A stretch of 64,000 bases of DNA from Squalus acanthias. Lineage: Eukaryota. Numbering within the stretch: position 1 is the stretch's first letter; each line of letters begins with the position of its first letter. The stretch is taken from NCBI GenBank assembly GCA_030390025.1, contig CM059431.1, positions 152,708,001 to 152,772,000 on the forward strand, written 5' to 3'. Position numbers and translations under genes: made by a program. Of the stretch, positions 1 through 45,410 are shown in pieces. A model generated the notes under the pieces. The model saw only the letters and a list, made by a program, of their open reading frames with translations, searched no databases and had not been told where the DNA came from.

Positions 1-2462
1 TACAGCTGCAGCAAGGTATCCCTGTTCCTGTATTCCAACCCTTTTGCTATGAAGGCCAGCATACCGTTTGCCTTCTTGACCGCCTGTTGCACCTGCATGC
101 TCGCCTTCAGTGACTGGTGTACAAGAACACCCAGGTCTCTCTGTACTTCCCCCTCTCCCAATTTATTGCCATTTAAATAATAATTTGCCCTCCCGTTCCT
201 GCACCCAAGGTGGATAACTTCGCACTTGTCCACATTATAGTGCATCTGCCATTTATCCGCCCAATCACCCAGTCTGTCCAAATCGCTCTGGAGCTTCCTG
301 GTCTCCTCCTCTGAGCCCACCCCCCCTCCTAGTTTAGTGTCGTCTGCAAATTTGGAAATGCTGCATCCGACTCCCTGATCCAGGTCATTAATGTAAATTG
401 TGAACAGCTGGGGACCCAGGACAGATCCCTGTGGTACCCCACTTGTTACTGCCTGCCATTCAGAAAATGAGCCGTTTATTCCAACTCTCTGTTTTCTATC
501 TGACAGCCAGTTCTCTATCCACGTCAATACTTTCCCCTTTATCCCATGAGCTTCAATTTTCCATGCTAATCTTTTATGTGGGACCTTGTCGAAGGCCTTT
601 TGGAAGTCCAGGTACACCACATCTACTGGCTCTCCCCCATCTATTTTACCAGTTACTCCCTCAAAAAATTTCAATAGATTAGTCAAGCACGATTTACCCT
701 TTGTAAATCCATGTTGACTCTGTCCTATCCTGTCCCCATTTGCTAAGTGCTCCGCTATTTCATACTTAATGATGGACTCCAGCATTTTGCCCACAACTGA
801 TGTAAGGCTTACAGGTCTGTAATTACCTGCTTTTTCCCTACCCCCCTTTTTGAATAGTGGGGTAACGTTAGCTACCCTCCAATCCATGGGCACTGTTCCC
901 GAGTCTAATGAATTCTGAAAAATCATACTTAGTGCATCCGCTATCTCTAGGGCCACCTCCTTCAGTACCCTAGGATGCATGTTATCAGGCCCTGGGGATT
1001 TGTCCGCCTTCAATCCCTTTAGCTTCCTTAACACCATATCCTTAGAGGTATTGATTTGCGTCATTTCCTCCTTTGCCAATGTCCCTATTTTTCCCGATAT
1101 CCCAGGGAGGTTTTTTGTGTCTTCCTTCGTAAAGACTGACCCAAAGTATGCATTTAGTTGGTCTGCCATTTCCTTATTTCCCGTTATATATTCCCCCGTA
1201 TCTGACTGCAATGGACCAACTTTGGTTTTCACCAGTCTTTTCCTCTTGATATACTTATAAAAGCTTTTGGAGTTAGTTTTTATATTTTCCGCCAGCTTGC
1301 TTTCATAAGCTATTTTGCCCCTCTTGATTAAGCCCTTTGTCCTCCTTTGCTCTATCTTAAACTGTTCCCAATCTTCCGCTCTGGTGCTTTTTTTGGCTAT
1401 TTTATACGCCCTATCTTTGGATTTTATGCTCTCTCTAATTTCCCCTGTTATCCACGGTTGAGTCACCTTTTTAGATTTCCTTTTATGCCAGATTGGTATA
1501 AACAATTTTTGCAATTTTGTCATTCTATCTTTAAATGCTTGCCATTGTTTATCTACCTCCAGTCCTCCCAGGAACGTTGTCCAATCAGACCTACTCAGTT
1601 CCCGTCTAATGGCATCATAATTCCCCTTGTTTAAATTCAGGACCTTAGTCTCTGAGTCAATTTCTTCGCTCTCCATTTCGAGTGAGAAATCGATCATGTT
1701 ATGATCGCTCTGACCCAAGGGTCCCCGTACAACAAGATTACTAATTAGTCCCTTCTCATTGCACAGTACCCAGTCCAATATAGCCTGTTCCCGAGTTGGT
1801 TCCTCGACATATTGATCCAGATAACCATCCCTTAAACACTCAAGGAATTCCTCCTCCTCATTATTTTTACTGATTAGGCTAGTCCAATCTATATGTAAGT
1901 TAAAGTCACCTATGATGACAGCTGTGCTCTTATTGCACGCTTCTCTAATTTCCCTCGTGATGCCCTCCCCAACCTCTATTTTACTATTTGGAGGCCTATA
2001 TACCACTCCTATTAATGTTTTTCGCCCCTTGCTATTTCTTAGCTCCACCCATATAGATTCTGTATTAACTGAGTTAATATCCTTCCTTTCAATTGCATTT
2101 ATCCCCTCTTTTACCAGCAATGCTACCCCTCCTCCCTTTCTTTTTTGTCGATCCTTCCTAAATACTGAATACCCCTGTATGTTAAGCTCCCAGCCCTGCT
2201 CACCCTGCAACCATGTTTCCGTAATCCCAATTAGATCATAATTATTAACCTCTATTTCCACAGCTAATTCATCTACCTTGTTCCTGATGCTTCTCGCATT
2301 AAGGTATAAAACCCTCAGGCTTTTTTTATGCTCACATTTTTTATGAATTAGTTTGGCCCTTTGTTTTTTGTTCCTCACCCTTTTACCATTTATTTCTGTC
2401 TGCCTTTCACTTTCCTCTAATTCACTACATAGGTTTCTAGCCCCCTGCCATACTAGTTTAAA
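1..2462 (-). CDS. CR1 ORF2 (APE endonuclease + reverse transcriptase), partial at window edge, no upstream AUG
   Basis: Hand translation is open from 2462 through the endonuclease (first in-frame ATG at 1697). The ORF track reports no closed minus-strand ORF here, consistent with a frame running off the edge. Confidence 0.85.
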
Positions 2463-3400
2463 TGCTCCCGAACTGCTTTATCAAAAATTACCCCGAGAAC
2501 ATCAGTTCCATCTTTGCACAGGTGTAGACCGTCCCTTTTGTATAGGTCACACCTACCACAAAACTGGTTCCAATGCCTCAAAAATTTAAAACCCTCCCTC
2601 TTACACCACTGCTCAAGCCACGTATTTAGCCTTACTATCCTGTTCTCTGTACTCTTACTAGCACGTGGCACTGGTAGTAATCCAGAGATTACTACCTTCG
2701 AGGTCCTACTTTTTAGCTTGGCTCCTAACTCCCTAAATTCTACTTGTAGGACCTCTTCCCTTTTTTTAGCTACGTCGTTGGTACCAACATGTATCACGAC
2801 AACTGGCTGTTCCCCCTCCCCTTCCAGAATGTTCTGCACCCGCGCCGAGACATCCTTGACCCTTGCACCAGGGAGGCAACATACCATCCTGGAGTCTCGG
2901 TCGCAACCACAGAAACCCCTATCTATTCCCCTTACAATCGAATCCCCTATTACTATAGCCCTGCCACTCTTTTTCCCTCCCTTCTTTGCAACAGAGCCAG
3001 TCATGGTGCCATGAGCCTGGCTGCTGGTGCCTTCCCCCGATGAGTCATCCCCCCCGACAACAGCACCTAAGGCGGTGAAACTGTTGCTAAGGGAGACAAC
3101 CCCAGGGGATTTCTGCACTACCTTCCTGCCCTTGCTCTGCCTTTTGGTCACCCATGTACTACCTACGCTGGCCTTAACCTGCGGTGTGACCAACTCACTA
3201 AATGTGTTATCCACAACCCTCTCAGAATCGTGGATGCTCCAAAGTGAGTCCATCCGCAGCTCAAGGGCCGTCATGCGGTCCCACATGAGCTGCAGCTGGA
3301 CACACTTCCCGCACACATGGTTGTCAGGGACACAGGAAGCGTCCCTGATTTCCCACATGTTACAGGAGGAGCATGACACAGGTCCGAGCTCTACTGCCAT
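2453..3400 (-). CDS. CR1 ORF1 protein (N-terminal Cys zinc-finger-like region + SGNH/GDSL esterase-like domain), 315 aa
   Basis: CSSC..CGKC, IGDSIVRG, CLPGARV, IHVGTND, SGLLP and DGLHL motifs. Confidence 0.92.
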   Translation of the reverse strand: MAVELGPVSCSSCNMWEIRDASCVPDNHVCGKCVQLQLMWDRMTALELRMDSLWSIHDSERVVDNTFSELVTPQVKASVGSTWVTKRQSKGRKVVQKSPGVVSLSNSFTALGAVVGGDDSSGEGTSSQAHGTMTGSVAKKGGKKSGRAIVIGDSIVRGIDRGFCGCDRDSRMVCCLPGARVKDVSARVQNILEGEGEQPVVVIHVGTNDVAKKREEVLQVEFRELGAKLKSRTSKVVISGLLPVPRASKSTENRIVRLNTWLEQWCKREGFKFLRHWNQFCGRCDLYKRDGLHLCKDGTDVLGVIFDKAVREHLN

Positions 3401-3697
3401 GACTTAACCCTTATATTACTTTTTAATTTTCTAGTTTTAGTTTATTTATTGACTTTTGTTTTCCCGAAGCTTACTTAGACCAATGTATACTGTACTCCTC
3501 TTATTCCTTTTTAAACTAACCAAATCCCACTAGTTTTAGTTTTACTTTCTAGGAAGGTTTGAGGAAAGTACTTACCAGTTAGTATTACCTCCCTGGTCTT
3601 TCGCTGACTTCCCGGTCAGTTAATCCTTACTTCACCAACAGTCGGTGAATTCTGGTCCCTTTCTAGGAGGCGAAACCCACTTCTGACATTACCTTTT

Positions 3698-5717: not shown

Positions 5718-5807
5718 TCTGATGGGCGACTGAACTAGCGACACTGAGTGGATGTGGTGGGAACTGCACCCGCTTCATTCCGTGCCCACAGCTGCCCTGA
5801 TAAAGCC

Positions 5808-6578
5808 AAGTCTGTGTGAATCTGTCTGCGTTCTGTGTGACGTCAGTCTGCAGTCTGTGTGACTCTGTCTGCAGTCTGTGTGACGCTTTCTGCAGTCTGT
5901 GTAACGTCAGTTTGCGATCTATGTGAAGTCAGTCTGCAGTCTGTGCGACTGTCTGCAGTCTGTGTGACGTCAGTCTACAATCTGTGCAACTCTGTCTACC
6001 GCATGTGACGTCAGTCTACATTCTGTGTGACGTCTGTCTGCAGTCAATGTGACGAACGTCTGCAGTCTGTGTGACGTTTACTGCAGTCTGTGTTACTCTG
6101 TCTGCAGTCAGTGTGACGTAAGTCTGCCGTCTGTGTGATTTAAGTCTGCAGTCTGTGTGACTCTGTCTGCAGTCTGTGTCACACTGTCTGCATTTTATGT
6201 GACGTCAGTCTGCAGTATGTGTGACTCTGTCTGCAGTCTGTGTGACTGCAATCTGTTTGACTTCAGGCTGCCGTCTGTGAGACTCTGTCTGCAGTCTTTG
6301 TTACTCTGTCTGCAGTCTGCGTGACTCTGACTGTAGCCTGTGTGACACCAGTCTGCAGTCTGTGTAGCATCAGTCTGCTGTCTGTGCGACGCTGTCTGCA
6401 GTCTGTATGACGGCAGTCTGGGTGACGTCAGTCTGCAGGCTGTGTGAGATCAGTCTGCAGTCTGTATAGAAGTCAGTCTGTGTGACGTCAGTCCGCAGTC
6501 TGTGTGAGGTCAGTCTGCAGTCTGTGTTGAAGTCAGTCTGTGTGACGTCAGTCTGCACTCTGTGTGACGTCATGCTGT
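5808..6578 (+). repeat. 20-22 bp minisatellite (GTCTGCAGTCTGTGTGACGTCA)n
   Basis: Directly visible tandem array containing TGACGTCA and CTGCAG palindromes. Confidence 0.95.
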
Positions 6579-7693
6579 GTGTATTATTGAGCTTCAGTCA
6601 GCGTTAGTCTCGCTCCCTCCGTGTTTGAGGAACGTGTGTCTGCTGGCTGTCTGACGTGCCGTCGGCCATGTTTCTGTGACGTGTTTTCGGCAATGTTATG
6701 ACTGATATGGGAATTGAGGGGAACGCAGCAAAGGTTTATTTAGAAATAGAGGAGATGAGAATATCAGGGACAGACAGTAACTTTGATATTAGAAATAGGA
6801 AACCCAAATCAAGGAAACCCAACAACTATCAAATTCGAAACAGGAAGAAGAAACATAACCATCTGGGATTGAATTTGAGACGGTAATGCAATGGTTACTT
6901 TTGCATGCCTTTGCGTTTTATTTTACCTGATTATATTGGATGACGTCGTTGATTACACAGCGCCAACTCACGATTGTAGCTGGGTGCAGATACATCGCTG
7001 ACTGAAGGAATTAAAACCCCAACCTGCTACCCGACTCTTGGCATAAATAGTGTTCGTCGTCTAAATCTACTTAAATGAGAATCAACCTACTGCTCAGACC
7101 TACCAGCAACTCATCACCACTTCCCCGAGAAGATGGATGCGAGCCGGATTGGCAGAGCCGGGGCTCCAGGGACCTGAAACCAAGTGGAGTTTTTTTTGAG
7201 AACGTCAGCATAAAGTGGAACGTGAACGAGTGACGGGTAAAGGGCACTTAATCACAAATAATATATGAACCACACGGACTATTAAGTACGCAGGCTGTTA
7301 GAGTAAAGATTTCAATAACGTTCTTGAAAATTGACGTGAGGTGTCACAGGTTTATTGAGCACACGGTACATGCAATAGTACTTAAACATACGGTTAAAAG
7401 GTGCAAATTGCAGCCACACCTGATGATGGTTGCATGGCGATTGAACATCTTACAGTTCTCAGCTCAGTATCTTAAGCTTTTAAGAATCAGAATACTCAGT
7501 ACAAACAGCCAGTTTTATTACAATTGTCTCACTCCCTCTCTGTGACCATCCACACAATGTTACATCACATAAATATATGATAGTTAAAATGTAATTCCAT
7601 ATATGAGACTTCCATCGAAATATCCTTTATCAGTAACGTTAGTTTTCCTTGCATAACCTTCTCTTTGTCTGTTCGGCTTAGAAGCGAAATTCC

Positions 7694-9877: not shown

Positions 9878-10759
9878 ATTATCTTATCAATAGTTTCACT
9901 CTTGATCCACAGCATTTCAATTCTACCAAGTGAAACCATTAATTATAAATCTACTTTTATTTCTGGATCATTCGTCCCAATTATAATGATGATGCATGCC
10001 CCGATTTTTTCGTCTGGAACTAACTGTCTTCCCACATTGTATCAAATGATTACAGTTATCTGAAATGTATGAATCAGTTTGCAATGACATGTGTTATATA
10101 AATCTCTTATTGCGTCCTCCTGAGACTGACCATTGCTGCAGGAACGGCCCTCGCACATCAGTCCACTGTTACTTTAAGTAGACTTGTACATCCCTGCTTA
10201 ACAGGCAAACGCTAAATATTATACATTAAAGCTATAGAAAGATAAACCAATATCGCATAACTTTACCAAACATTAGGACAGTCTAATTAACTCTTTCCTT
10301 ACAGTAACCCACTGTTGGCGTTCGATTACTTAAGGCCAACAATAAAATTAAATCTCATCAGCATCATATATCTATCTCGATCTATTCTCTTCTCCAGATC
10401 TCTACCCATTTGCTTTACACATTACTTTATCCAGAGCCACATTAACCATTTCTTGTAGTGCTGACTTCAGCGTGACTGACCATGTCTTAGACCCATTCTT
10501 CAGAGCATCTTCATCATGCACATCGCATGCTGGTATCGTATTCACGAGCAACACCACACTTCAGCACACACAGCGATCACCCAAGATCAGGCAGCAGGAG
10601 GCATCCGATACAAGCCATTCCTTCCCTTTCTGGCTATCTTCCCAAAGCTGGGAGAGGGGGCAGGGGTTCTGTCGATGTTTAATTAGCTTCTCCCCCTGCA
10701 TGGTTCTGATGTTTCTTGTAGTGGCCAAGCTATCAAGTTCATTCCTCTAATTGCTCAGT

Positions 10760-13700
10760 TCCAGAAAGGACAGAACCATGAAAGCGGACCTGAGCAAGAT
10801 GAGGGGCGGCGGCATAAAAGCAGCGGGAGAAAAGATCCTGGGGCGGAGCAGACCAGAGCAGCAGCGGCATATTTATTCGGTTAATTCAAAAACAACAACA
10901 AATTATCAAGGAGTGACGTCACCGGACAGCAGGTAGGTGATTGGTTGGTGAGTATTACAGCTGAGTTTGCTCTCGAAGCAAGCGAAGTGGGTTCAAAATA
11001 TAACTTTAACGAGATGTAGTAAGTAGTTAAAAAATAAACCATGAGCTAAGTTAATTGAATGCATAAACATTATTTAATTAATTACCTAAAACGAGGTTCT
11101 TTCGTGTTGGCAGTGCAAGTTGTGTGCCGCAACATGATCAAGTGGAATGTTTGTGGCGAGCATCGCGACCCCTGATGACCATGTCTGCAGTTAGTGCCTG
11201 CACCTCGAGGAACTTCAGCTCGGAGTTGTTGAACAGAAGACCGAGGTGTAGACATTGCGAGGCATCAGGGCGGGGGGGAGTTACCTGGACACTTTGATCC
11301 TGGAGGCAGTCACACTCATTCGCTAAGGTAGTGGAACAGGCCTGGTGGTGGCCAGGGACAGGATGGTGTGGCTGCGACTTAGACAGGTAAGGGGACCCCA
11401 GGTTGCAGCCCTGGAGGAGTCTCGGCTTAGTACGTATTCAGCAGGTATGTGGTTCTTGCTGCCTGTGTGGATGAGGGCAAAGTCTGCAGTAAGGATGTGC
11501 AAACTTACCACGGCACCGTGGTATAGGAGGCCATTCGAGTGGGGGGGAGTTAAAATGAATGAAGTTGTGGTAGGGGACAGTATAGTCAGGGGGTGAAATA
11601 CTGTTCTCTGCAGCAACGACCGGGTGCTCCGAAGGCTCTGTTGCCTTTCAGGATTAAGGATATCTCCCCGCAGCTGGAGAAACATTTGGAGGGGGAGGGG
11701 AAGGATTCAGTGCTCGTGGTCCATGTAGGAACCAATGACATACGTCGAACTAGAAATGAGGTTCTGCTGAGAGAGTTTGAGGAGCGAGCATACAATTTAA
11801 AATGCAGGACCTCAAAATAATAATTTCTGGATTGTAACCTCATCCACGTGCAAATTACCATAGGGATAAGCAGAACCGAGAGTTGAAGGATTTGTTGAAA
11901 GAATGGTTTGGGAGGAAGAGATTTGGATTCATGGGCACTTGCACCAGTTCTGGAAAAACAGTGAGCTGTTCCATTGGGAGGGGCTCCACTTAAACCGGGT
12001 TGGGACCTGTATCCTGGTGAATCGAATAACACGGACTGTTAATGGGGCTTTAAACTAAAAGTCAAGGCAATGGAGCAGTGTATCGATGTGGGTAAAGATA
12101 AGCAGAGTGCGACAGGAAAGGACAGAGAGCTTAACGGTAATGGGGCATCAGCGAATAAGGAGAAAGCAGAGAATAATGGTAAAAAGTTAAAATTAAAGGC
12201 TGTTTGTCTGAATGCACGAAGCATTCGTAACAAGGGATCTATAAGAAATTAAACCAGACTAAATATAAACGAAACAGGAACGGAGAGCATAGGACGGAAT
12301 AAACTAAGGGAGGGCATAGACTCTACGTAATAAATAGAGTTATTGAACTAGAGAGTTAAAATATGGTTAAAAATAAAGCGAAGAGAACTGCTATTAAGCA
12401 TGAGTTAAACACCCTGTACAGCAATGTGCACTATGTCCGTAATAAAACAGGGGAACTGGAGGCACTAATATGTTGCGAGGAACCAGATATTGTAGGAAAT
12501 TCTAAGACATGGCTACAAAAAAGCAGGACAGCGAATTAAACATTGCAGGGTATGTTTAGAAACGATAGAGAAGGGAAAAGGGAGATGGAGTAGTTGTGCT
12601 TATTATAGGTAACATATTGGCAGTAGAAAATATGACGCAGCTATCAGTAAGACAGAAATAGAATCCAAGTTGATAGAGATAAAAGATAATGAAGGGTGAG
12701 TACACACCCAGAGGAAGTCTACAGACTACTAATGGTGGAAGAGGAGATGAAGGAAGAAATTTGGAAACAAATGAGAGAAATTAGTAAAAAAAAAAATATG
12801 TGGAGTTTAAACTGCCCCGAAATTAATTGGGCAGAAGAGCTAGGTAAAGGGAATAAGGGAATGGAGTTCCTACTATGTGAAAAGGACTCCTTTCGAACCC
12901 AATAGGTAAGAAGTCGAAAAGGGAGAATTAGCTACTGGATCGAGTAATGGGGAATGAAACAGAGCAGATAAGAGAAGTAAAAGTGGGGCAGCATCTTGGT
13001 AATAGTGACCACAATATAATACGATTTCAGGTAATAATTGAGAAGAACATACGTATGACGCCGAACAGGGTAATAGATTGGAGAAAATGCGATTTTGAGG
13101 GGCTGAGAATAGAACTTGGGAAAATAAAATGTACCACAATATTGGCAAGCAATGATGTAGAACAACAATGGGAAACATTTATTCAGCAGGACCAGGAAAA
13201 TATAGTCCACTAAAATTCAAGAACAAACTAAGCACTAATGAGACGCCATGGATGAATAAAGACATAAGGGAAAAATTGAGGATAAGGAAAGAGGCATACA
13301 CTAAGAAAATGGACAACAGGGAAGATCATGGCAAGGGAGAATGTGAAGAGAATAGAGAAGTCAAAAAAACAATAGGAAGGCAAAGGGGAACTTGCGATTA
13401 AATTAGCAAGCAACATAAAACAAAGTAATAAAATATTCTACAGGCAGGTAAATAAAAAGGACATTTGGGATGGGAATACGGCCATTCAGGAACGGTCAGG
13501 ATAAAATCAAAGGCAGTGATATCGAAATGCCAGAAATATTACATAATTACTTTACTTCAGTATTTACCAGGGAGACGGTCAGGTAGACGTGACATCGGAA
13601 AATAAGATTAGAAATTATATAACCACATTTAAAATTAAAAAGGAGAACTATTAAATAAATTAATCGAACTCAAACAGGAGAAATGCCCTGCTCTAGACGG

Positions 13701-16297: not shown

Positions 16298-17205
16298 TTA
16301 ATTCTTCATTTTATTAACCAATATCAGAATCAATGTCCAAGGAGATTTCACCATCTTCACCAACTCTTGCCTGAATTTGGTTTGTGTCGCTGCATAAATG
16401 CAGGTGTTTGTACAGGAACTCAAATACATGAGCATAAATCCGCTTTCAGACAGGATGTATGCAGGGGTTTCATACTCACCTTTGTAATAAACGGCCAGGC
16501 TGTCAGTGATGAAGCTCATGGCAGATGTGAACCACAACAGTATAAAACTGCCCGATACAGTGAACAGTAAAATGATGGATTTCCTCCGGCTCTCCATCTC
16601 TGGATCGCTCTGATTCTCACTGCAGTGACCCCGGAGTCGCCTGCGGGCCCGACTGCTTACTACAATTCGTCTGACTGTCAAACAATTAAACAGTAATATC
16701 AAAGCAACAGTAAACCATGGAACTAAAATAATTTGAATGCGCAAATAGGCTATGCCTGCAGGAGAAGAGTAAAAGGCTACATTGGCGCGGCATCCCCAGG
16801 AAACATTGTTAATGATTCGTTGAGATTCATAGGAGAAAGCAAAGGGGATATTCTCGATACAGACCAGCACAAGGACAGTTGTTAAAACAGCTGCCGCAGT
16901 TCTCACTGTGCAATATTTTGTTTTAAACTTCTGACAACATATTGTTACAAATCGATCAAAAGTGAACAAGGCTGTAAACCACACCGACATATCCAGGGTG
17001 ACGGCATTGATGTAATGAATGGACTTACACACGGGAGTGTAGAACAGGAATGAATGCGGAAAGTGGTAACAGAAAATCTGAAACACCAGTATATGGAAGA
17101 TGATGACCAGTAGATCTGCTGTCGCCATGGCCACCATGTAGACCGAGATACATTTGGAAAGGCCGCAATTTCCTCTGGAGAGAATCAGGATTGTCAGTAG
17201 GTTCG
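16298..17205 (-). CDS. GPR139-like class A GPCR, paralog A, exon 2
   Basis: 7TM pattern with MATADLL, TFDRF and SSCTNTCIY; acceptor cttacag at 17206; phase-1 join with exon 1 gives 325 aa. Confidence 0.9.
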
Positions 17206-17334
17206 CTGTAAGGAAGAGGGAGAAGAGGTTAGTAACAGGGACATCCGGTTAAACCTCACAGCTTATTGTGGGGGAATGCTCAGATGCGGGGACCAACATT
17301 GTTGTTTTGCCATATAGGCGAGCATTGAGGTGTC

Positions 17335-18963: not shown

Positions 18964-19267
18964 GAACAATCCATCCCCCGGTGAGCAAACCAGGTTACAC
19001 AATAATTGAACTTAGTTACAGTCACTTAACAAACAAGGGGCTATTTTCCGCTACAGTGCGTCCGGTCCACCAATGGGGAAATTGAACAGCTCAGTCCATG
19101 AAACTCCGTCCATTTAAATCAAAGAAAGGGAGTTAATCCCAGATGGAATGTGCTCTGCGCCCGTCATGTGATCCCTGAAGGGAGCATCTCTCCAAGTCCC
19201 TGTGTTAGCTTCTTAGAGCCTCACATAATTTGGTGAAATCTCTCTCATCCATTACATAAGTAATGCT

Positions 19268-20695
19268 TTAACGTTACTGTTGATATCTCTGCCCAGACAT
19301 TAATGGTCGTCACCCTTCTCTAATATTACTACTGGTAATCCTAAACTAATATTACTGGTGGTGGCCATCATCTAACATTAATGGTGATGGCTCTACTCTA
19401 ATATTACTGGTGGTGAACCTACTCTAACATTACTGGTCATAACTCAACATAAGATTACAGATGGAGACCCTATACTAACATTACTGGTGATGATCCTCCT
19501 CTAACATTGCTGGTAGTGACCCAACTTGAACATTACTGGTGGTAACTCTACTCATGCCTTACAGCTGGTGACAGCACTCTAACATCCGGGAAGGCGCTGA
19601 ATACCTCCAGCCTCTTCGCCGGGAGCAAGCGGAAGCCAAGCGCAAGCAGCGCAAGGAGTGCACGTCAACCCAAGCACCCCACCCACCCGCCCGTTCAACC
19701 ACCGTCAGCCCCACCTGTGACAGAGACTGTAGGTCCCGCATTGGTCACATCAGTCATCTGAGAACTCAATTTTAATGTGGAAGCAAGTCATCGTCGGTTC
19801 CGAGGGACTGCCTAAGAAGAAGAAGAAGAGACCGGAGTTTAATCTGCTCTAACATTACTGGTGGTGAACCTATTCTAACATTAAAGCTGCGGAATCTAAT
19901 CTAACGTTACTGGTGGTGACTGCACTCTAACATTACTGCTGGTGACCCTACTCTAACATAACTGATGGTGATTCTACTCTAACATTACTTGTGATGACAT
20001 TTCTCTAACTTTACTGGTGGTGGCTCTACTCTAACATTACTCGTCCTGACCTCACTCTAATATTACTGGTGATGAAAATAGTCTAACATTACTGGTGGAG
20101 ACCCTTCTCTAACATTACAGATGGTGACTCTACTCTATCATTGCTGATGTTTACCCTTCTCGAACATTGCTGTTGGTGACTCTACTCTATTAATGCTGGT
20201 GCTGAATCTACACGAACATTACTAGTGGTGATCCATGTGTAACAGTACTGGTGTAGACTCTATTCTAACATTACTGGTGCTGAATCTGCATTAATATTAC
20301 TGGTGATGACACTTGTCTAACATTACTGGTGGAGTCCCTACTCTAACCTTACTGCTGTTGTCCCTACTCAAACGTTGCTGATGCTGACTCTACTCCAACA
20401 ATACTGGTGATGACCCTCCTCTAACATTACTGGTGGTGACTCTAATCTAACAGTGCTGGTGACGACCCTCCTCTAACATTACTGGAGGCGACTGTACTGG
20501 AACATAACTGGTAGTGGCCCTCGTCTAATATTATTGGTTGTCACACTGCTCTAGCATTACTGGAGGCGACTCTACTCCAACGTTGCTGGTGGTGACTGTA
20601 CTCTAACGTTACTGTTGGTCGCTCTTTTCTAACCTTTCTGATAGTGACACTACACTAACATTCCTGGTGTTGACTCTATTCCATCATTACTGGGG
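19268..20695 (-). repeat. 26-bp satellite, reverse orientation (ACTCTAACATTACTGGTGGTG...)
   Basis: Degenerate tandem units, reverse complement of the 33085-37925 array. Confidence 0.92.
19585..19830 (+). mobile_element. RTE-clade LINE 3' fragment
   Basis: Matches the 3' end of the element at 35275-36337; (AAG)n tail. Confidence 0.85.
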
Positions 20696-21682
20696 GTAGG
20701 GTGCCCTCGGTGTGAGGATGGACCTAGTCTCCACAAGGATTGTGCATGATCACACCTACAAATTCTTTCAAGCACAGATGCATCAGGAGGAAGTCAACTG
20801 GGTTTTCCCCCGTGTGGGTTCTCTCATCCCCTCCCGCACGCCCAATCTGGCAGTTATGTACTTTAGTGGTGCTACCGAGCCGGTCCTGGTGATGGACATT
20901 GAAGTCCACGACCCAGAGTACATTCTGCGGCCTCGCTAACCGCAGTGCTTCTTCCAAGGAGGCGGACTGATTCATCAGCTTAGGGAGGGCGGTTGTCAAT
21001 CAGTCGGAGCTTTCCTTTCCCATGTTTGACCTGTTGCCCCGAGACATCATGGAGTTCGAAATAAATGTTGAGGACTCTCAGGGCCACTCCGACCCGACTA
21101 TAAACTGGAGTACCGCCACATCTGGTGGGACAGGATAGATCCAGGGATGGAGATGGAAGAGACTGGGACATTGGCTGAAAGATATGATTCTGTCAGTATG
21201 ACTGTGTCAGGCTGCTGTTGGACTAGTCTGTGGGGCAGCTCAGCTAATTTTAGCACAAGTCCCCAGATGTTAGTGATGAGGAATTTGCAGGGTCGAATGG
21301 GTGGTCTGTGCCTTTGTCGTGTCCGAACCCGATCCGTCCAATTTTATTCTTATTATACTCATTTAGAGCGCGTTGATACAAATGAGTGGCTTCTTCGGCC
21401 ATTTCAGAAGATAATTAAGAGTCACATATAGGCCTTACAGGCAAAGGATGGCAGGTTTCTTCCCTACTATCCATTAGTGAACAACTTGCCTTTCTACAAT
21501 AATCGATAGCTTCATGTACATCATGCATGATACTTTCATTTTATTAGAGATTTATTTAACTGACTGCATTGAAATTCCCAGATTGCCATGGGAGGCTCGG
21601 GTTTGGAACTCACATCTTCGTATTATTAGTCCCGCTCTCTGGATTACCAGTTAAGCAACATAACCATTATGCTGCCGTACCT
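20696..21682 (-). mobile_element. CR1/L2-group LINE 5' fragment with SINE-like head
   Basis: QNVLWVVDFNVHHQ endonuclease remnant; head similar to 22770-23070. Confidence 0.7.
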
Positions 21683-21684
21683 TG

Positions 21685-22752
21685 GAGAGGTCACCAACAG
21701 AAATGTCAGAGACTTGTCCTCGCCATTATTGTGAGCGTGGAGTCATCATCAATAATCATAGAGTAGGGTCATCAACAGTAATGTTCTAGTAGGTTCAACA
21801 CCGTTAATGTTAGAGTAGAGTCACCACATGTTATGTTAGATGGGTCCCACAATCAATCAATTTAGAGTTGAATCTCCACCGGTGATGTTAAAATAGGTCA
21901 CCACCATTGATGTTAGAATACAATTAACACCAGTAATGTTAGGGTAGTGTAAGCAAGAACAGTGTTAGATTAGTGTCAAGAACAATAATAGGAATAAAGG
22001 CCAGTAATGTTAGAGTAAATTCACCACCGGTGATGTCAGATTAGGGTCACCACCTGTATTGTTAGTGTAGAGTTATCACCAGTAATGTTGTAGTAGGAAC
22101 ACCTCTAATATTATTGGGTCCGAGTACTGACCGGAACTTGTTATAATGCAGTTCCAAACAGTAATGTTGCAGTAGGGTGACTTCCACTAACGTTAGATTA
22201 GGCTACAGCCCCAGTAGTGTTAGTACTGAGTCATCACAGAATCCCCACAGTGCAGATAGAGGCCATTTCGGCCCATCGAGCCTGCACCGACACATATCCC
22301 ACCCTATCCCAGTAACCCCACGTATTTAATCCCTCTAACACTAAGGGTCAATTTATCACAGCCAAATCAACCTAAACCGCATATCTTTGGACTGTGGGAT
22401 GAAACCGGAGCACCCGAGGAAAACCTATGCAGACACGGGGAGAATGTGCAAACTCCACACAGACAGTCATCCATAGGCCGGATTCGAACCCGGGTCCCTG
22501 GCGCTGGTGAGGCAACAGTGCTAACCACTTTGCCACCGTGTTGCCCATGATCAATAATGTTAGAGTCGGGTCACCACCAGTAACGTTGGAGTAGAGTCAC
22601 CATCAGTAAGGTCAGAGTCGAGTCACCGCCGGTGATATTAGAGTAGGGTGAACTCCAGTAATGTTAGAGTAGGATCAACACCAGCAGTAAAGGTAGAGTA
22701 GGGTCAACACTAGAAATGTTAAAGTAGGCAATAGGCCAGTAATGTTATAGTA
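21685..22752 (+). repeat. 26-bp satellite, forward orientation, degenerate
   Basis: caccagtaatgttagagtag units. Confidence 0.85.
22236..22546 (-). mobile_element. HE1-like tRNA-derived V-SINE with CR1-type tail
   Basis: tRNA head (gggttcgaatcc B box), V-domain-like gtgtggagtttgcacattctccccgtgtctg, 3' gatgggccgaaatggcct tail. Confidence 0.85.
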
Positions 22753-22764
22753 GGATAACTTTTA

Positions 22765-24272
22765 ACATATTGGTAAGTTTACTGGGCTAGTAATCCAGAG
22801 GCGAGGACTAATGATCCAGTGATGTGAGTTCAAATCCCACCACGGCTGCTGGGGAATTGAAATTCAGTTAATTAAATACATCTGGAAAATAAGCTAGTAT
22901 CTGTAATGGTAACCATCGGATTGTCGTAAAAACCCATCTGGTTCACGAATGTCCTTTCGGGAAGGAAATCTGCCGTCCTTACCTGGTCAAGCCTATATGT
23001 GAGTCCAGACACACAGTAATGTGATTGACTCTATACTGCCCTCTGAAATTGCCCAGCAAGCCACTCAGTTATAACAAACCACTACGAAACACAATAAGAA
23101 GAATAAATCGGAAGAACCACCCGGCATCGACCTCGGCACCAGCTACGAACACGACAATGGCACACCCAGCCCGGTCGACTCTGCAATGTCCTCCTCACCA
23201 ACATCTGGGCACTTGTGCCGAAATTGGCAGAGCTGTCCCACAGACTAGTCAAGCAACAGACTGACATAATCATACTCAAAGAGTCATATTCCATGATGAA
23301 CACCACTTGGAAGAAGCACTGTCAGTAGCAAGGGCACAGAATGTGCTCTGTGTGCAGGACGTCAAAGTCCATCACCAAGAGTGGCGCGGGTCCCCCACTA
23401 ACGACCAAGCTGGTCGTGTCCTTAAGGATATAGCTGCCAGTCTGGGCCTGCGACAGGTGGTGATAGAACTAACACGAGGATAAAACCTACTTGACCTCGT
23501 ACTCACTGATCTAACTGTTGCAGATGCATCTGTCCATGACAGATTTGGTAGCAGTGAACACCGCACAGTCATTGTGGAGACGTAGTCCCGTTTTCACACT
23601 GAGAACACCCTCCATCGTGTTGTGGCCCTACCACCGTGCTAAATGGGATAGATTCAGAACAGATCTAGCAGCTCAAAACTGGGCATCCATGAGGCGCTGT
23701 GGGCCATTAGCAGCAGCAGAATTGTATTCCACCACAATCTATAAAATCATGACCGGGCATTTCCCTCACTCTACCATTACCGTCAAGCCAGGGGACCAAC
23801 CCTGCTTCAATAAAGAGTGTAGAAGAGCATGCTAGGAGCAGCACTAGGCGTATCTAAAACAGATGTGCCAACCTGGGGAAGCTGCAACACAGGACTACGT
23901 GCATGTTAAAAAGCGGAAGCAGCATGCTACAGACAGGGCTAAGAAATCCTACAATCAACGGATCAGATCAAAGCTCTGCAGTCCTGCCACATCCAGTCGT
24001 GAATTGCGGTCGACCATTAAACAATGGAGGAGGCTCCATGAATATCCCCATCCTCAATGATGGTGGAGCCCAGGACGTGAGTGCAAAAGACAAGGCTGAA
24101 GCGTTTACAACCATCTTCAGCCAGAAGTGCAGAGTGGATGATCCATATCGGCCTCCTCCTGAGTTCCCCACCATCACAGAAACCAGTCTTCAGTCAATTC
24201 GATTCACGCCACGTGATATCAAGAAACGGCTGAGCGCACTGGATACGGCAAAGGCGATGGGCCCCGACAATT
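22765..24272 (+). mobile_element. CR1/L2-group LINE 5' half with tRNA-like head
   Basis: gagttcaaatccc B-box-like motif, then EN remnants and KAEAFTTIFSQKC, KAMGPDN. Confidence 0.75.
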
Positions 24273-25670
24273 GAGACCGGAAGGAGTGGACGTGGAGCGA
24301 GTACAGCGAGAGCGGAGCAGTTATAAAGAGCGGCAGCAACTCAACAGAGGCAGCATTTGAAAAAGTGACGTCAGAGTAAAAAATGTGACATCGGCAAAAG
24401 GGAAAGAGCTGATTGGTGAGTAGCTGGTAGGTGTATATTTTAAGTTCATAAGTTTATTTCTGCCAAGTTAGTTCATAGCCTATTAAATAGAGGGAAAGAG
24501 CTGATTGGTGAGTAGCTGGGGAGTGTTTTTTGTTATTTTTAATTTTATTTCTGCTGGGTTCTGCTGGGTTAGTTCTGAGTCTATTCAATAGAGGCAATGG
24601 GTGGAGCTGAGTCCCGTGGAGTTCACATCATGTGCCATGTGGGAAGCCCTGGATGCTTCAGCGTAGCCTGGACGACCACATGCGCAGGAAGTGTCGCCAG
24701 CTACAGCTACTCGCGCTCCGGGTTTTGGAGCTTGAGCGGTGGCTGGAGTCACTGTGGTACATCCACGAAGCTGAGAGTTATGTGGATGGCATATTTCTAG
24801 AGGTGGTCACCCCGCAGCTTAAGAGTATGTAGGCAGAGAGGGAATGGGTGACCGCAGACTGAACAGGAGGACCAGGCAGATAGTGCTGGATTCTCTGGAG
24901 TGCACCGCGCTCTTCAACCAGTATTCTGTTCTGAGTACTGGTGAGGGCGATGGTTCCTCTGGGGAGTGCAGCCAGAGTCAAGTCCACTGCACCACGGGTG
25001 GCTCAGCTGCACAGAGGGCAGTAATAACAATGGGAGAGCAATAGTCGCAGTGGATTCAATTAATAGGGGAGCAGACAGGCTTTCCTGTGGCCTTTGACGT
25101 TACTCCAGGATGGTATGTTGCCTCCCTGGTGCCATGGTCAAGAATGTCACTGGGCGGCTGCAGGACACTCTGAAGGGGCAGGGTGAACAGCCAGAGGTCG
25201 TTGTCCATATCGCAACCAACGACACAGGCAGAAAGAGGGATCTCGCAAGGAGGTTTGTTCGTGCTGTTGGGGAGGGTTTAAATTAACCTGGCAGGGGATG
25301 TGCACCAGCATATAGGAGTAGAAAAAAGGAATAAGGTGCATAAAAGAGTGAGTGTGTTGGATAGTCTAGATAAAACAGTATTAGAGGCGGTAGTAGTACT
25401 ATATTAGATAGGAGCAGACAAAGAAAGACTACGAAAAATTCAAAAATGTGTTTAATATGCATGTACGTAAAAGCAACAAAGTTTGGTGAATAAGGTTGGT
25501 GATCTTCAAGCAGAATCAGCTGTGTGGCAATATGATGTGGTGGCAATAATGGAAACGTGGCTTAATAACGGTGAGGACTGGGCACTTAATATTCAAGGGT
25601 ACAAGGTGTTCAGAAAAGATAGGGAAGGAAAAAAGGGAGGTGGGTGGCAGTGCTGATTACGGACGACAAT

Positions 25671-27819: not shown

Positions 27820-30800
27820 TAGAAATTAAGAAAAATAGAAAAATAGGAGCAGGAGTAGGCCATTCGGCCCTTCGAGCCTGCTCTTCCATTCAATATGATC
27901 ATGGCTGATCCTTTATCACAATACCATATTCCCGCTCTCTCCCATACCCCTTGATGCCTTTTGTGTCTAAAAATCTATCTATATCCTTCTTCAATATATT
28001 CAGTGACTTGGCCTCGAAAGCCTTCTGTGGTAGAGAATTCCATATCTTCACCAGCCTCTGAGCGAAGAAATTTCTCCTAATCTCAGTCCTAAATGTCCTG
28101 CCCCGTATCCTGAGACTGTGACCCCTCATTCCAGTCATCCCAAACAGGGGAAACATCCTCCCTGTATCCAGTCTGACAAGCCCTATCAAAATTGTATACG
28201 TTTCAATGACGCCCCTCTCATTTTTCTAAACTCAAGTGAATACGGGCCTAGTCGACCCAATCACTCCTCATACGACAGTCCACCCATCCCAGGAATCAGA
28301 CTGGTGGACCATCGCTGCACTCTCTCTATGGCAAGTATATCCTTTCTTAGGTAAGCAGACCTTAATTGCACACAGCACTCCAGGTGTGGTCTCACCAAGG
28401 CCCTGTATAACTTTAGTAACACATCCTTGCTCCTGTACTCAAATCCTCTTGCAATGAAGGCCAACGCACCATTTGCCTTCCTAACTGCTTGCTGCACCTG
28501 CATGTTTGCTTTCAGTGATTGGTGTACAAGGACAGCCAGGTCCCTCTGCACATCAACATTTCCCAATCTATCAGCATTTAAATAATACTCTGCCTTTCTG
28601 TTTTTCCTACCGAGGTGGATAACTTCACATTTATCCACGTTATACTGCATCTGCCATTCACTCAACTTGTCTAAATCACCTTGAAGCCTCTTTGCATCCT
28701 CCTCACAACTCACAATCCCCCTTTAGTTTCGTGTCGTCAGCATACTTGGAAATATTACATTTGGTTCCCTCATCCAAATCATTGATAAATATTGTGAATA
28801 GTTAGGACCCAAGCACTGATCCCTGCGGTACCCCACTAGTCACCGCCTGCCACCCCAAAAAAAACACATTTATTCCTGCTCTCTGTTTCCTGGCTGTTAA
28901 CCAATTTTCAATCCATGCCAGTATATTACCCCCAACCTCATGTGCTTTAATATTGCACACTAACCTCTTATGTGGGACTTTATCAAAGTCCTTCTGAAAA
29001 TCCAAATACACCACATCCACTGCTCTCCCTTATCTATTCTACCAGTTACATCCTCAAAAAAACTCCAGTAGGTTTGTCAAACACGATTTCCCTTTCATAA
29101 ATCCAAACTTTTTTTGTAATCCCGTTGATATTTTCCAAGTTTCCTATTATCACATCCTTTATAATAGACTCTAGCATTTTCACTACTACTAATGTTAGGC
29201 TAACTGATCTGTAGTTCCCTGTTTTCTCTCTCACTCCCTTTTTAAATAATGTGGTTATATTTGCCATCCTCCAATCTTCAGAAACTGTTCCATAATCTAT
29301 AGAATTTTGGAAGATAACAACCAATGCATCCACTATTTCCATGGCTATCTCTTTCAGTACTCTGTGATGCAGATTATCGGCTTTCAGTCACATTAATTCC
29401 TCCAGCACTATTTTTTTACTAATACTAAATTCCTTTATATACTCCTTTTCACTAGACCCTTGGTTCTCTAGCATTTCTGGGAAGTTATTTTTGTCCTCTT
29501 CCGTGAAGACAGAACCAAAGTATTTGTTTAATTGCTCACCATTTCCTTGTTCCCCATTATAAATTCTCCAGTGTCTGAATGTAACGGACCTACACTTGTC
29601 TTCACTCATCTTTTAGTTTTTACATACTTGTAGAAGCGTTTACAGTCTGCTTTTATGTTCCTTGCAAGTTTACTCTCATACTCTATTTTTCCCCTCTTTA
29701 TCACTCTCTTGTTTTATTTTGCTGAACTCTAAACTGCTCCCAATCCTCAGGATTGCTACTTTTTCTGGCAACGTTTTATGACTCCCCGTTGGATCTAATA
29801 CTGTATTTAATTTATTTTGTTAGCCATGTTTGGGCTGCTTTTTGTTTTGTGTTTTGCGCCAGCAAGGAATGTCTCACTGTTGCAATTCATGCATTTGTTC
29901 CTTAAATGTTAGCCACTGCTTATCGACCATCATGCCTTTTAATGAAGCTCCCCAATCTATCATAGCCAAATCACTCCTCATACCTTCGTAGTTTCCTTTG
30001 TTTAGAGTTAGGACCTTAGTTTCGGATTGGAATTCTTCACATTCCATCTAATTGAAGAATTACTCATGTTATGGTCACTCTTCCCTAAAGGACCCTGCAC
30101 AACACGATTATTAATTAACCCCTTCTCCTTGCACATTACCCAATCTAGGATAGCCTGTTACCTAGTTGGCTCCTCAACGTACTGATCTAAAAAGACATCT
30201 CGTACACACTCCAGGAATTCATCCTCCACAGTATTATTGCTAATTTGGTTTGGCCAGTCTATATGTAGATTAAAGTCACCCATGATTACTGTAGTACCCT
30301 TTTTACTTGCATCTATAATTTCCTGTTTAATCCCATCCCCTACAACACCACTACTCTTTGGAGGCCTATAGACAACTCCCACCAATGTTTTCTGCCCTTT
30401 ACTGCTTCGTAGCTCCACCCAGACTGATTCTACATCTTGATTTTCTGAGCCAATATCTTTTATCACTATTGCTCTGATTACATCCTTTAATAACAAAGCC
30501 ACCCACCTCTTTTCCTGTTTGCCTTTTCTTCCTTACTATCGAATATCCTTGGATATTCAGCTCCCAACCTTGGTCACCCTGCAGCCAGGTCTCCGTAATC
30601 GCAATGATATCGTATCCATTTACATTAATTTGCGCTGTCAATTTATCTACCTTATCACGAATGCTTCGTGCATTCAGATACAGTGCCTTTAGATTTGTCT
30701 TTTTAACATTTTTAGACATCTTAAACATTTTTTTTACTGTGTCCCTATTTGTCTTATTCCCATTTTTTCTTACCCGGACCCTATTTTTTAGTGCACTACG

Positions 30801-30935
30801 TTGTTTCTACGCTCTGTCCCTTCCTGACACAATCTGGTTATCCTTACCCCAATCACTTTCCTGCACTGATTTCTTGTCTTTTCTCTTTAGCATTCTAGAT
30901 TTCTCTCCACCGGGACCGCCCCCCCCCCCCCCTGT
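27820..30935 (-). mobile_element. CR1 ORF2-length insertion (antisense, nested)
   Basis: LYLNARSIR, YRPP, GDFN, YLDFQK, GVPQGSVLG remnants; 3' tail at ~27830; ttaa at both junctions. Confidence 0.9.
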
Positions 30936-32049
30936 TTAAGGACAATAAACAGCGAGTTGTGGTCAATGGATATTTTACAGTCTGCGGGATGATAGACAGT
31001 GGTGTTCCCCAATGGTCGGTGCTGGGGCCACTGCATTTTCGATATATATAAATGACCTGGTTATTGGAATAGAGAGTAGAACTTCTAAATTTCCGATGAC
31101 ACCAAGCTTGGGGGTATGGCAAGCATTGATGATGATATCAATCAACTGCAGCAGGCTATGGAAAAGCTGGCAGAATGGACAGCCAAGTGGCAGATGAAAT
31201 GTAATACAGAGAAGTGTGAGGTGATGCATTTTTTGACACAAGCAACAGGGAGAGGCAATATACTTATAATGACACATTTTTAAAGAGTGTGCAGGGACAG
31301 AGGGTCCTGGGAGTTAATGTGCATAGGTCCCTGAAGTTTGCAGGACATAATGAGAGAGTGGTTAACAAAGCATATGGGACCTTGGGCTTCATAAGTAGTG
31401 GTATTGTGTACAAAGCGAGAGATGTTATGCTGACACTTTATAGAGCGCTGGTTAGGCCACAACTGGAATATTGCGTCCATGTCTGGTTACCACACTTTAG
31501 GAAGCCTGAATTTCACTTGAGAGGGTGCAGCGGAGTTTTACCAGAATGGTTCCGGGGATGGAGGAATCTTAGCTACAAGGACATGTTGGAGAAGATGGAT
31601 TTGTTTACATTAGAGCAAAGGAGGTTGAGGGGTGATTTGATAGAGATGTACAAGATAATGATGGGTGTGGATAGACTGGTGGGGAAAAGGCTGTTCCCAC
31701 TAGTTGATAGTACAAGGACTAGGGGACACAGATTTCAAGCTTTGGGCAAGAGATACAGGGGTGATGTGAGGAAAAAAATGTACACAGCGAATGGTGATGA
31801 CCTGGAATTCGCTGCCGACGAAAGTGGTGGAAGCGGAGACACTCAATGTTTTCAAGGGGAGACTGGATAGGCACTTGAGGGAAATGATTTTGCAGGGCTA
31901 CAGGGATAAGCGGGGGACTGGGACTGACTGGATTGCTCTACAGAGAGCCGGCACGGACTCTTTGGCCCAATGTCCTCCTTATGTGCCGTTATGACTCTGT
32001 GAGTCTATAAACAACATTAGGGCTCATCGAATTGCTTGTATTTTACTTT

Positions 32050-33082: not shown

Positions 33083-33084
33083 TG

Positions 33085-37925: not shown

Positions 37926-38226
37926 GAAGTTGAAGCGCTTATTATGTAATGATGAGAGAATTTTTCACCAAATAACGTGGGCCCAAGAAGCTAACACAGG
38001 GATTTGGAGAGATGTTCCATTTAGGGTTCACTCGGCTGGCGTCGAGCGCATTCCCACTGGGATTAACTCCCTTTCATTGATTTTAATGGACGGTGTTTCA
38101 TGGACTGAACTTTTCAATTGTAGCCCGGGTGCACTGAAGCGGAAAATCGCCCTTTGTTTGTTAAGTGACTGTAACTAAGATCTGTTATTGTGTAACCTGA
38201 TTTGCTCACCAGGGCACGGATTGTTC

Positions 38227-38378: not shown

Positions 38379-39027
38379 GTAAGTCAATGCATCCTGTTGT
38401 TTAATAGCTGATGACGATCTCACTGTTAATGATTATGTAACTGATTCCGTGATGGGTCTCACTGCAGAGTCACTTATCCACCGGGATAATTTGGTGAATA
38501 TCAGCGGGAATCCTCGCAGTTCGCCCTGCCGGTTAGGCGCTATTCTATCCGGTAGATCTTGGGCACGGGGCACTCAAACTCCCTCTCTACACTGAGGCGA
38601 GGGTGATTCCCCGGCCCCTCCAACAGTACATAGTCCTGTAAAGAATGTGTTGCTTAGTGTCCATAGTATTTATTTCATTTGTCCCGTGGTTCCCTGTCTA
38701 TTTTAAGTTGATAATTGCTCGGACTGCAGCTAACTCCACCCAACAGCTGAATGTTTTATTGAATCCAGATATTTCCAGTAATTGCTGCGAAATTATATTT
38801 AACCACTGCCTGAAGTATGGGGGAAGGGACTCGGATTTTGAGTCACTCTATACTGAATATTCAATGTTTCATTCCTTTTAATTCAAATCTCCTCAACGCT
38901 CGCCTATATGGCAACAAATCAGTGTCCGTAACGCCAAGTAGGGACACATCTGAGCATTTTCCCACAATATGCTGTGAGATTTATCTGACTATCCCCGTTA
39001 CTGACCTATTCTCCCTCTTCCTTACAG

Positions 39028-43900: not shown

Positions 43901-45410
43901 CTGTTTCGTTTATATTTAGTCTGTTTTTATTTCTTATAGATCCCTTGTTACGAATGCTTGGTGCATTCAGATAAACAGCCTTTAATTTTAACCTTTTTAC
44001 CATTATCCCCTGCTTTTTCCTTAATCGCTGATGCACTATTACCATTAAGCTCTCTTTTCTTTCCAGTCACACTCTGCTTATCTTTATCGAAATCGATACA
44101 CTGCTCCATTGCCTTGACTTTTAGTTTAAAGCCCCATCAACAGTCAGTGTTATTCGATTCACCATGATACAGGTCCCAGCCCGGTTTAAGTGGAGCCCCT
44201 TCCATATGGAACAGCTCACTCTTTCTCCAGTACTGGTGCCAGTGCCCATGAATCGAAACATTTTCCTGCCAAACCATTCTTCCAGCAAACATTTAACTCT
44301 CAGTTCTGCTTATCCTTATTGCAATTTGCACGTGGCTGAGGTTTCAATCCAGAAATTATTACTTTTGAGGTCCTGCGTTTTAAATTGTCTGCTCGCTCCT
44401 CAAACTCTCTCAGCAGAACCTCATTCCTAGTTCGACATATGTCAGTGGTTCCGACGTGGACCATGACAGCTGGATTCTTCCCCTCCCACTCCAAATGTTT
44501 CTCCAGCTGTGGGGAGATATCCTTAAAGCCTTCGGTACACCCGGTCGTGGCTGCAGAGAACAGTCTCTAGCCCCCTGAGTATACTGTCCCCTACCACAAC
44601 TACATTCATTTTCACTCCCCCCACTCGAATGGCCTCCTATACCACGGTGCCATGGTCAGTTTGCTCATCCATACTGCAGACTTTGCCCTCATCCACACAG
44701 GCAGCAAGCACCTCATACCTGCTGAATACGTACTAAGCCGAGGCTACTCCAGCACTGCACCTGGGGTCCCCTTACCAGCCTGAGTCACAGTCACACCCTC
44801 CTGTCCCTCACCACTAACCAGGCCTGTTCCACTACCTAACCTAAGGGGTGTGACTGCCTCCAGGAGCAAAGTGTCCAGGTAACTCTCCCCCGCCCTGATG
44901 CCTCGCAATGTCTGCACCTCGATCTCCTGTTGAACAACTCCGAGCTGAAGTTCCTCGAGGTGCAGGCACTAACTGCAGACATGGTCGTTAGGGATCGCGA
45001 TGCTCGCCACAAACATTAAACGTGATGTTGTTGCGGCACACAACCTGCACTGCCATCACTATACAACCCCGTTTTAGTTATTTAATTAATTAATGTTTAT
45101 GCATTCAACTAACTTAGCTCATGGTTTAGTTTTTAACGACTTACTACATCTAGTTTTAGTTATAGGTTGAACCCACTTCGCTAGCTTAGAGAGCAAAATA
45201 ACCTGTAATACTCAGCAACAAATCACCGACCTGGTGTCCTGTGACGTCACTCCTTGATAATTTGTTGTTGTTTTTGAATTTCCCGAATAAATATGCCGCT
45301 GCTGCTCAGGTCTGCTCCGCCCCAGGATCTTTTCTCCCGCTGCTTTTATGCCGCCGCTCCTCATCTTGCTCAGGTCTGCTTTCATGGTTCTGTCCTTTCT
45401 GGTACTGAGC
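40965..45410 (-). mobile_element. Degenerate CR1, mirror copy of 10760-15260
   Basis: Same 5' UTR, ORF1 and ORF2 remnants in inverted orientation. Confidence 0.9.

Follow-up and report, generated by a model that had tools for sequence, protein, structure and literature searches.

Programmed −1 ribosomal frameshifting is a textbook mode of recoding. Its canonical signal needs a stimulatory RNA structure 5-9 nt away on the 3′ side (PMC3542737), and U_UUA_AAC, G_GGA_AAC and A_AAA_AAC have been named together as the most shift-prone heptamers on mammalian ribosomes (PMC5009743). The translation of the second open reading frame (ORF2) of long interspersed nuclear elements (LINEs) has been called unclear (PMC3708506). 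For the TRE5-A and TRE3-A elements, a review figure legend gives a −1 frameshift as required for ORF2 (PMC5911963), and a second review states ORF overlap only (PMC5633606). CR1 is described as the dominant retrotransposon of most vertebrate species; its members with an esterase ORF1 combine a Cys-rich N-terminus and an SGNH esterase in ORF1, an apurinic/apyrimidinic endonuclease (APE) and a reverse transcriptase (RT) in ORF2, a 3′ stem-loop and a tandem-repeat tail (PMC13343379), and the type IVB ORF1 is defined as zinc finger/leucine zipper plus esterase (PMC4120745). A word search of the accessible text of the latter two papers found no statement on ORF2 translation. Here, we analyze a CR1 element on the minus strand of a 64,000-nucleotide stretch of Squalus acanthias DNA (contig CM059431.1, positions 152,708,001 to 152,772,000), hereafter the window. 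The initial annotation of the window had suggested that such elements may produce an esterase-endonuclease-RT fusion by −1 frameshifting. Comparative analysis supports this suggestion: ORF2 of vertebrate CR1 is likely made by a programmed −1 frameshift at U_UUA_AAC as an ORF1-ORF2 fusion. The basis in sequence comprises the heptamer, its register, the frame relation of the 2 ORFs, the lack of a shared AUG, conservation at the nucleotide level and a G-run 10 nt downstream.

The CR1 element and the frame of its ORF2

The element extends from approximately 3617 to 1 and is an intact, young LINE of the CR1 type (Table 1); the genome that holds it comprises 3.7 Gb. Its ORF1 esterase was assigned through Pfam (Lipase_GDSL_2, E 9e-11, above the cut-off) and a profile match to the ZfL2-1 ORF1 esterase 4C1B (E 1e-40), and the closest named relatives of ORF1 come from sharks and rays. 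The ORF2 frame, with the FADD motif, comprises 983 codons counted from the heptamer when the neighboring stretch L155 is included; in L155, the 3′ side of ORF2 carries a stem-loop followed by a short tandem repeat tail, with no poly(A). This domain layout is the same as that described for vertebrate CR1 with an esterase ORF1, and the junction words match consensus rows labeled LINE/CR1 in the PMC13343379 supplement. By these sequence criteria, the element is a vertebrate CR1 LINE of the esterase ORF1 type.

The last codons of ORF1 read GAG CAT TTA AAC TAG. The initial annotation had placed a U_UUA_AAC heptamer (2462-2456) in X_XXY_YYZ register immediately before the stop, with the −1 frame open into the APE endonuclease and the first ATG at 1697, past the catalytic SDH; each of these points was borne out. 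From 2477, 5 codons upstream of the heptamer, the −1 frame (F K L V W Q G ...) is open and has no stop up to the window edge; its first ATG is codon 255, just past SDHN. In other CR1 families, a TAA or TAG stop occupies the same place, directly after the heptamer. Protein identity was found in all 150 scored matches to the final 115 ORF1 residues. The junction TTTAAACTAG is present in 29 of 29 anchor-matched loci (29 of the 30 loci matched the anchor), and the −1 frame is open across all 502 codons examined in 21 of these 29 copies.

The frame relation noted for the window element extends to other copies, with ORF2 in the −1 frame wherever the endonuclease motif is in frame. In a survey of representatives mostly picked for open frames, 14 of 15 have the endonuclease motif in the −1 frame, at a distance of 45-81 codons past the heptamer; the −1 frame closes 5 codons upstream of the heptamer in 10 of 14 copies, and no Met precedes the endonuclease in 6 of 14. 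Across 871 codons, 2 stops were counted in the −1 frame versus 65 and 89 in the others, a difference biased by the open-frame picking. The first Met of full-length ORF2 is codon 166, 178 and 255 in 3 families and codon 19 in a fourth, and no AUG for ORF2 is shared between families at the junctions compared. An in-frame AUG overlapping or adjoining the ORF1 stop, as in SART1, is absent; none occurs before codon 255 in the window element, and a Met at codon 4 is confined to one family. Because Met positions are scattered, or the first Met comes only at codon 166-255, AUG initiation, as judged from these frames, cannot be the general route to ORF2. Among the contigs listed from sequencing runs (4 of 21 runs; presumed RNA), neither a splice-type joint into ORF2 nor an indel at the heptamer occurs, but none of them has 31 bases on both sides of the heptamer, and they are not used as evidence.

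Conservation of the heptamer

ORF1 ends were located through the esterase DGxHL motif and a fixed spacing, independently of the heptamer. The 120 loci comprise 10 multi-copy families, 56-87% identical over the final 450 nt of ORF1, and 15 singletons. TTTAAAC followed by a stop is the majority sequence in all 10 families (TAA in 8, TAG in 2), and the exact heptamer is present in 99 of the 105 members. At the synonymous positions singled out in the initial annotation, neither the Leu codon nor the wobble base ahead of it varies between family majorities, and the wobble T is held under Asp, His, Ala and Gly. By comparison, with each family represented by one copy, between 2 and 6 codons occur in each of the 6 other invariant Leu columns, and TTA accounts for 26 of 155 Leu codons. 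Genome-wide, 25,291 anchored copies carry the exact heptamer and stop, with 0 in a reversed-pattern control; anchored variants amount to 375 with a non-T wobble (V-TTA-AAY) and 38 with CTN-AAY, TTG-Leu and T-TTA-AAT not being counted separately. The variant rows viewed (100 of the 375 wobble variants and all 38 CTN variants) comprise scattered mutants, slips within the G-run and clusters that are small and local, the wobble variants having mixed bases and belonging to many families; no variant fixed in a dispersed family occurs among these rows. A candidate heptamer-free CR1 family on C7 (4 copies with T CTA-AAT) was rejected, as the copies examined (3 of the 4) are decayed, locally clustered fossils. 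The C7 region at 75.5-76.4 Mb (L135-L137) holds divergent CR1 fossils that end T CTA AAT and are decayed in all frames.

ORF1 termini with Leu-Asn were found, partly via profile search, in a swallow, a snake, lizards, turtles, frogs, sharks and rays; among homologues in which a short tail follows the DGxH motif, 45 of 51 end in this way. The residue before Leu-Asn lacks a U-ending (NNU) codon in 1 of 101 proteins, compared with 46 and 37 of 101 at one and two positions earlier; the avoidance of such residues therefore fits a requirement for U. At the DNA level, TTTAAACTA is found at the ORF1 end in consensus sequences of alligator, crocodile, bowfin, bullfrog, chimaera, coelacanth, stingray, sawfish and sharks (PMC13343379 supplement). 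This comparison covers the first 400 letters of each consensus row and gave 23 matches, 17 at the ORF1 end by eye and 6 elsewhere; within it, no bird row is among the matches and 6 variant spellings of the heptamer have no match in CR1-labeled rows.

The pattern changes in a distant clade known as protein. There, 14 non-redundant relatives end in Gly-Asn, preceded by Gln in 10 and otherwise by Ser, Val, Lys or Ala, all compatible with an NNG codon, and 2 further relatives end in S-K-N. We take the Gly-Asn ends to be compatible with G_GGA_AAC because the preceding Gln and Lys can supply G and not U; with the S-K-N ends compatible with A_AAA_AAC, we infer an apparent swap of one heptamer for another. 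Overall, 69 of 122 ORF1 termini fit X_XXY_YYZ, compared with 111 of 2,290 internal tripeptides. The database proteins P0088, P0037, P0073 and P0126, which read from ORF1 into FKL.., were rejected as fusion candidates, since they seem to be single copies with indels or gene-model artefacts; what they document for rays and a turtle is the presence of the −1 peptide FKLxxxG, not its expression. A metagenome scan gave 10 distant loci, none with an ORF2 junction; viral contigs and plasmids gave no match, and prokaryote genomes gave 4 distant matches.

Counter-evidence, other routes to ORF2 and the downstream region

Several results weigh against the proposed frameshift. The first concerns codon conservation elsewhere in ORF1: a single codon is used in 2 of 24 other invariant-residue columns, and the third base is retained in 10 of 76 variable columns. 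As the families are related and these 10 columns behave alike, the wobble T alone is weak evidence within this genome, and, on the sequences compared, shared ancestry accounts for part of the conservation. Furthermore, a Met lies inside the linker in 8 of 14 copies, at scattered positions, and 2 copies also have an upstream Met in the −1 frame. Relatedness, conserved columns and linker Mets would all fit a protein constraint, under which ORF1p, the ORF1 product, needs a Leu-Asn C-terminus, the codons are inherited and ORF2 is reached through internal initiation or leaky scanning to family-specific Mets. We regard this as very improbable: none of the 6 other invariant Leu columns keeps a single codon, the same DNA word recurs from chimaera to crocodile with the 6 variant spellings unmatched in the CR1-labeled rows, and AUG initiation would leave young families whose first Met is at codon 166-255 without an intact endonuclease. 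In addition, the alignment of the solved chain of the homologous esterase 4C1B (171 aa) stops at position 309 of the 313 in the profile, which means that the chain lacks the Leu-Asn end.

The second result is that 53 of the 122 esterase-ORF1 termini fit no terminal heptamer, including teleost esterases (carp, rohu and pompano), and that the clade with Gly-Asn and Lys-Asn ends is known as protein only. The terminal heptamer signal, as read from these termini, is clade-limited and not universal. The distant esterase ORF1s P0152, P0184, P0231, P0267, P0273 and P0274 have G-F-x, F-F-x or G-F-L-x at their ends; G_GGU_UUY or U_UUU_UUH could be concealed there, one or two codons before the stop.

Third, a missing AUG does not by itself imply a frameshift, because ORF2 of human L1 is made by AUG-independent initiation (PMC5009743). 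An L1-like or SART1-like alternative is termination-coupled, AUG-independent reinitiation in the −1 frame from a non-AUG codon at or just past the stop, which would yield a separate ORF2p, with the conserved bases and the G-run positioning the restart. The stop that directly follows the motif in all families is consistent with it, as are the overlapping UAAUG of SART1 (PMC3708506) and the lack of a frameshift-type RNA structure, and an open −1 linker is expected under either model. Reinitiation nevertheless appears unlikely: under this model, nothing calls for an exact X_XXY_YYZ in the 0-frame register, for the avoidance of E/Q/K/M/W before Leu-Asn or for the change to Q-G-N and S-K-N termini, which are consistent with other canonical heptamers. 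Moreover, the codons past the stop differ freely among families, and the ATG located 1 nt past the stop of the window element belongs to a +1 frame that ends 4 codons later, and other families do not share it.

Splicing has also been considered as a source of an ORF2 message. The 5′ untranslated region (UTR) of the element contains a GTAAGT consensus splice donor (3575-3570, minus strand), which could splice inside the UTR or into host genes, and donor-like words occur in the 5′ UTRs of 2 shark consensus sequences. If this donor were joined to the AG of the ORF1 stop, the conserved bases would represent a branch or acceptor signal, and the stop of the window element does give C-TAG. Such a route is highly improbable: at this position most families, 8 of 10, have TAA and hence no AG. 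There is also no polypyrimidine tract ahead of the site, and the segment from the approximate 5′ end to the donor contains no ATG.

The fourth result concerns the downstream stimulator. The initial annotation had seen no obvious pseudoknot past the heptamer, and in folding that excludes pseudoknots, none of 22 copies has a z score below −2 over 80 or 150 nt (minimum free energy versus dinucleotide shuffles). As a substitute, long-range pairing between the G-run and the 3′ UTR of the same element was rejected, the cognate pairing being no better than non-cognate (permutation p 0.92; 9 copies, 6 of 15 having been dropped for want of the 3′ motif), although the best G-run duplexes often lie near the 3′ UTR. 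A two-tier G-quadruplex was likewise rejected; its pattern fits 10 of 22 copies, not including the family of the window element.

What is conserved downstream is the G-run itself. G occupies positions +11 to +14 in 20-22 of 22 copies versus a 26% background, and GGGG is found at +11..+14 in 20,553 of the 25,291 anchored copies (81%). The same 10-nt spacer precedes the G-run in crocodilian, sawfish and catshark consensus rows, and in some other rows the run is off by 1-3 nt or no clear run is present (PMC13343379 supplement). The run codes the invariant Gly of FKLxxxG, and because this Gly is coded as GGG preceded by G, a nucleotide-level role for the G-run is plausible from the sequence. G-run length differs widely among copies and often shifts the ORF2 frame. 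The ORF1 stop directly after the heptamer is the other candidate for a pause.

Under the proposed −1 frameshift, most ribosomes would halt at the UAG and release a 315-aa ORF1p (34.6 kDa). A minority would pause with the Leu- and Asn-tRNAs on UUA AAC, re-pair on UUU AAA and read CUA next, giving a predicted esterase-endonuclease-RT fusion of 1296 aa (146.5 kDa) with the junction ...EHLN|LVWQGAR. The least certain step is the pause: as no local RNA structure was found, its source would be the neighboring stop codon and/or something bound to or formed by the G-run. The outcome would be a fixed, high ORF1p:ORF2p ratio and an enzyme tethered to ORF1p multimers, as in Gag-Pol. More tentatively, esterase-type CR1 from the distant clade to sharks and birds could share a structure-free −1 signal composed of a canonical heptamer (U_UUA_AAC in jawed vertebrates, with G_GGA_AAC or A_AAA_AAC in its place elsewhere), a stop immediately adjoining it and, at a fixed spacing of 10 nt, a G-run to which a trans-acting protein binds; ORF1p itself or a host protein that recognizes G-runs would be possible candidates. 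If so, one of the most abundant vertebrate retroelements would make a Gag-Pol-like fusion that is stimulated by a protein and possibly autoregulated. If the frameshift itself is real, the active CR1 enzyme would be the esterase-endonuclease-RT fusion and not the ORF2 that pipelines annotate from an internal Met, which would change the counting of intact CR1 copies and the design of cell assays; with approximately 25,000 anchored copies, the site would rank as one of the most frequent used for frameshifting in a vertebrate genome, and one with no detectable RNA structure.

Other sites in the window and relation to known recoding systems

The initial annotation had listed recurrences of the junction at 12049, 44124-44130 and 25277. 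The sites are as given, but all are in decayed copies, and those at 12049 and 44130 are not independent: both adjoin inverted-repeat arms of 91-94% identity, for which reason they are most likely one inverted duplication. In the 12049 copy, the −1 frame ends soon past LNARSIRNK; in the 44130 copy, an indel breaks it; and in the 25277 copy, a −1 stop follows 4 codons past WQG. A similar copy of the third family, L151, has AAC where the 25277 copy has AAT. The bare heptamer has 14 matches on the 2 strands of the window, an estimate of composition giving about the same number, and 4 of the 5 TTTAAAY+stop matches in the window are ORF1 ends. The non-randomness of the heptamer thus lies in its position, not in its abundance.

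Table 1. Coordinates of the CR1 element and of the other ORF1-ORF2 junctions in the window.
Feature	Position	Strand	Details
CR1 5′ UTR	3401..3617	-	5′ end approximate (contigs of relatives end at 3617)
CR1 ORF1	2453..3400	-	ATG 3400, 315 aa, ends ...E-H-L-N-stop
ORF1 layout	2453..3400	-	Cys-rich zinc-finger-like N-terminus, predicted coiled coil, SGNH esterase
Putative slippery heptamer U_UUA_AAC (T_TTA_AAC)	2456..2462	-	X_XXY_YYZ register, 0-frame, final 7 coding bases of ORF1
ORF1 stop TAG	2453..2455	-	Adjoins heptamer; C-TA (Leu) in −1 frame
G-run, candidate stimulator	2441..2445	-	Starts exactly 10 nt past heptamer (+11..+15)
Linker from shift site to endonuclease	2307..2456	-	~50 codons, −1 frame, no Met, no stop
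CR1 ORF2	1..2456	-	−1 frame; APE endonuclease and reverse transcriptase (RVT_1, Exo_endo_phos)
U_UUA_AAC heptamer + TAA	12049..12058	+	Decayed copy, other CR1 family; in-frame ATG at 12070
Probable inverted-duplication copy of 12049 junction	44121..44130	-	Heptamer 44130-44124
U_UUA_AAU + TAA	25277..25286	+	Decayed, internally deleted copy of third family; heptamer 25277-25283; AAT replaces AAC

A further, 5′-truncated CR1 copy (~30160-30940, minus strand) starts at the G-run, just past the expected position of the heptamer. Elsewhere in the window, 2 single-exon ORFs of rhodopsin-family G protein-coupled receptors (GPCRs), at 16298-17248 (minus strand; 7tm_1) and 38814-39926 (plus strand), lie in inverted arms of 94% identity, with further arms at 10648-11346 and 44817-45515; this is probably a large inverted segmental duplication. 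A 294-codon ORF at 59588-60472 (minus strand) belongs to the ART NAD:arginine ADP-ribosyltransferase family (E 2e-41), has a hydrophobic C-terminus and resembles host ecto-ART. Large 26-bp minisatellite arrays occur in both orientations (~19240-20700, 21680-22770, 33000-35240 and 37250-37930), with further arrays of 27 bp (51339-51686) and roughly 22 bp (5800-6590). The ORF pieces at 56047-56481 (minus strand) and at 865-1530 of L135 resemble, by eye, what we take to be the Myb/SANT-like DNA-binding protein of Harbinger-type transposons.

The initial annotation could not confirm that frameshifting in CR1 was unreported. No statement of it was found in the literature searched, outside of which fall the original chicken and turtle CR1 papers and the Repbase notes; word searches of the accessible text of a 2016 frameshifting review, the esterase structure paper and the chicken genome report gave none either. 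For non-LTR (long terminal repeat) elements as such, novelty does not stand, as the −1 shift is already stated for TRE5-A and TRE3-A. These Dictyostelium elements resemble CR1 in being APE-type non-LTR elements with overlapping ORF1 and ORF2, and differ from it in lineage, in ORF1 type and in being targeted to tRNA genes. Human L1 and silkworm SART1 share with CR1 a bicistronic LINE RNA and low-level ORF2, whereas they rely on initiation or reinitiation to make a separate ORF2p (PMC5009743, PMC3708506), unlike the fusion proposed here.

The signals of infectious bronchitis virus and other coronaviruses and of retroviral gag-pol are similar to that of CR1 in the use of U_UUA_AAC and in the fusion of a structural or accessory protein to a polymerase. 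By contrast, CR1 is a host-genome LINE in which no stem-loop or pseudoknot was detected and the stop comes right after the heptamer. In the −2/−1 frameshift at nsp2 of PRRSV, the virus causing porcine reproductive and respiratory syndrome, nsp1beta and PCBP act on a C-rich motif 10 nt past the slippery site and mimic a structured RNA stimulator (PMC4937337). By analogy, PRRSV and CR1 would share a homopolymer-rich motif at a 10-nt spacer, although the motif is C-rich in the former and G-rich in the latter, and a trans-acting protein is known for PRRSV and none for CR1. Collectively, the sequence comparisons indicate that the putative CR1 shift site is real and deeply conserved, and that it probably represents a new form of a known type of recoding.

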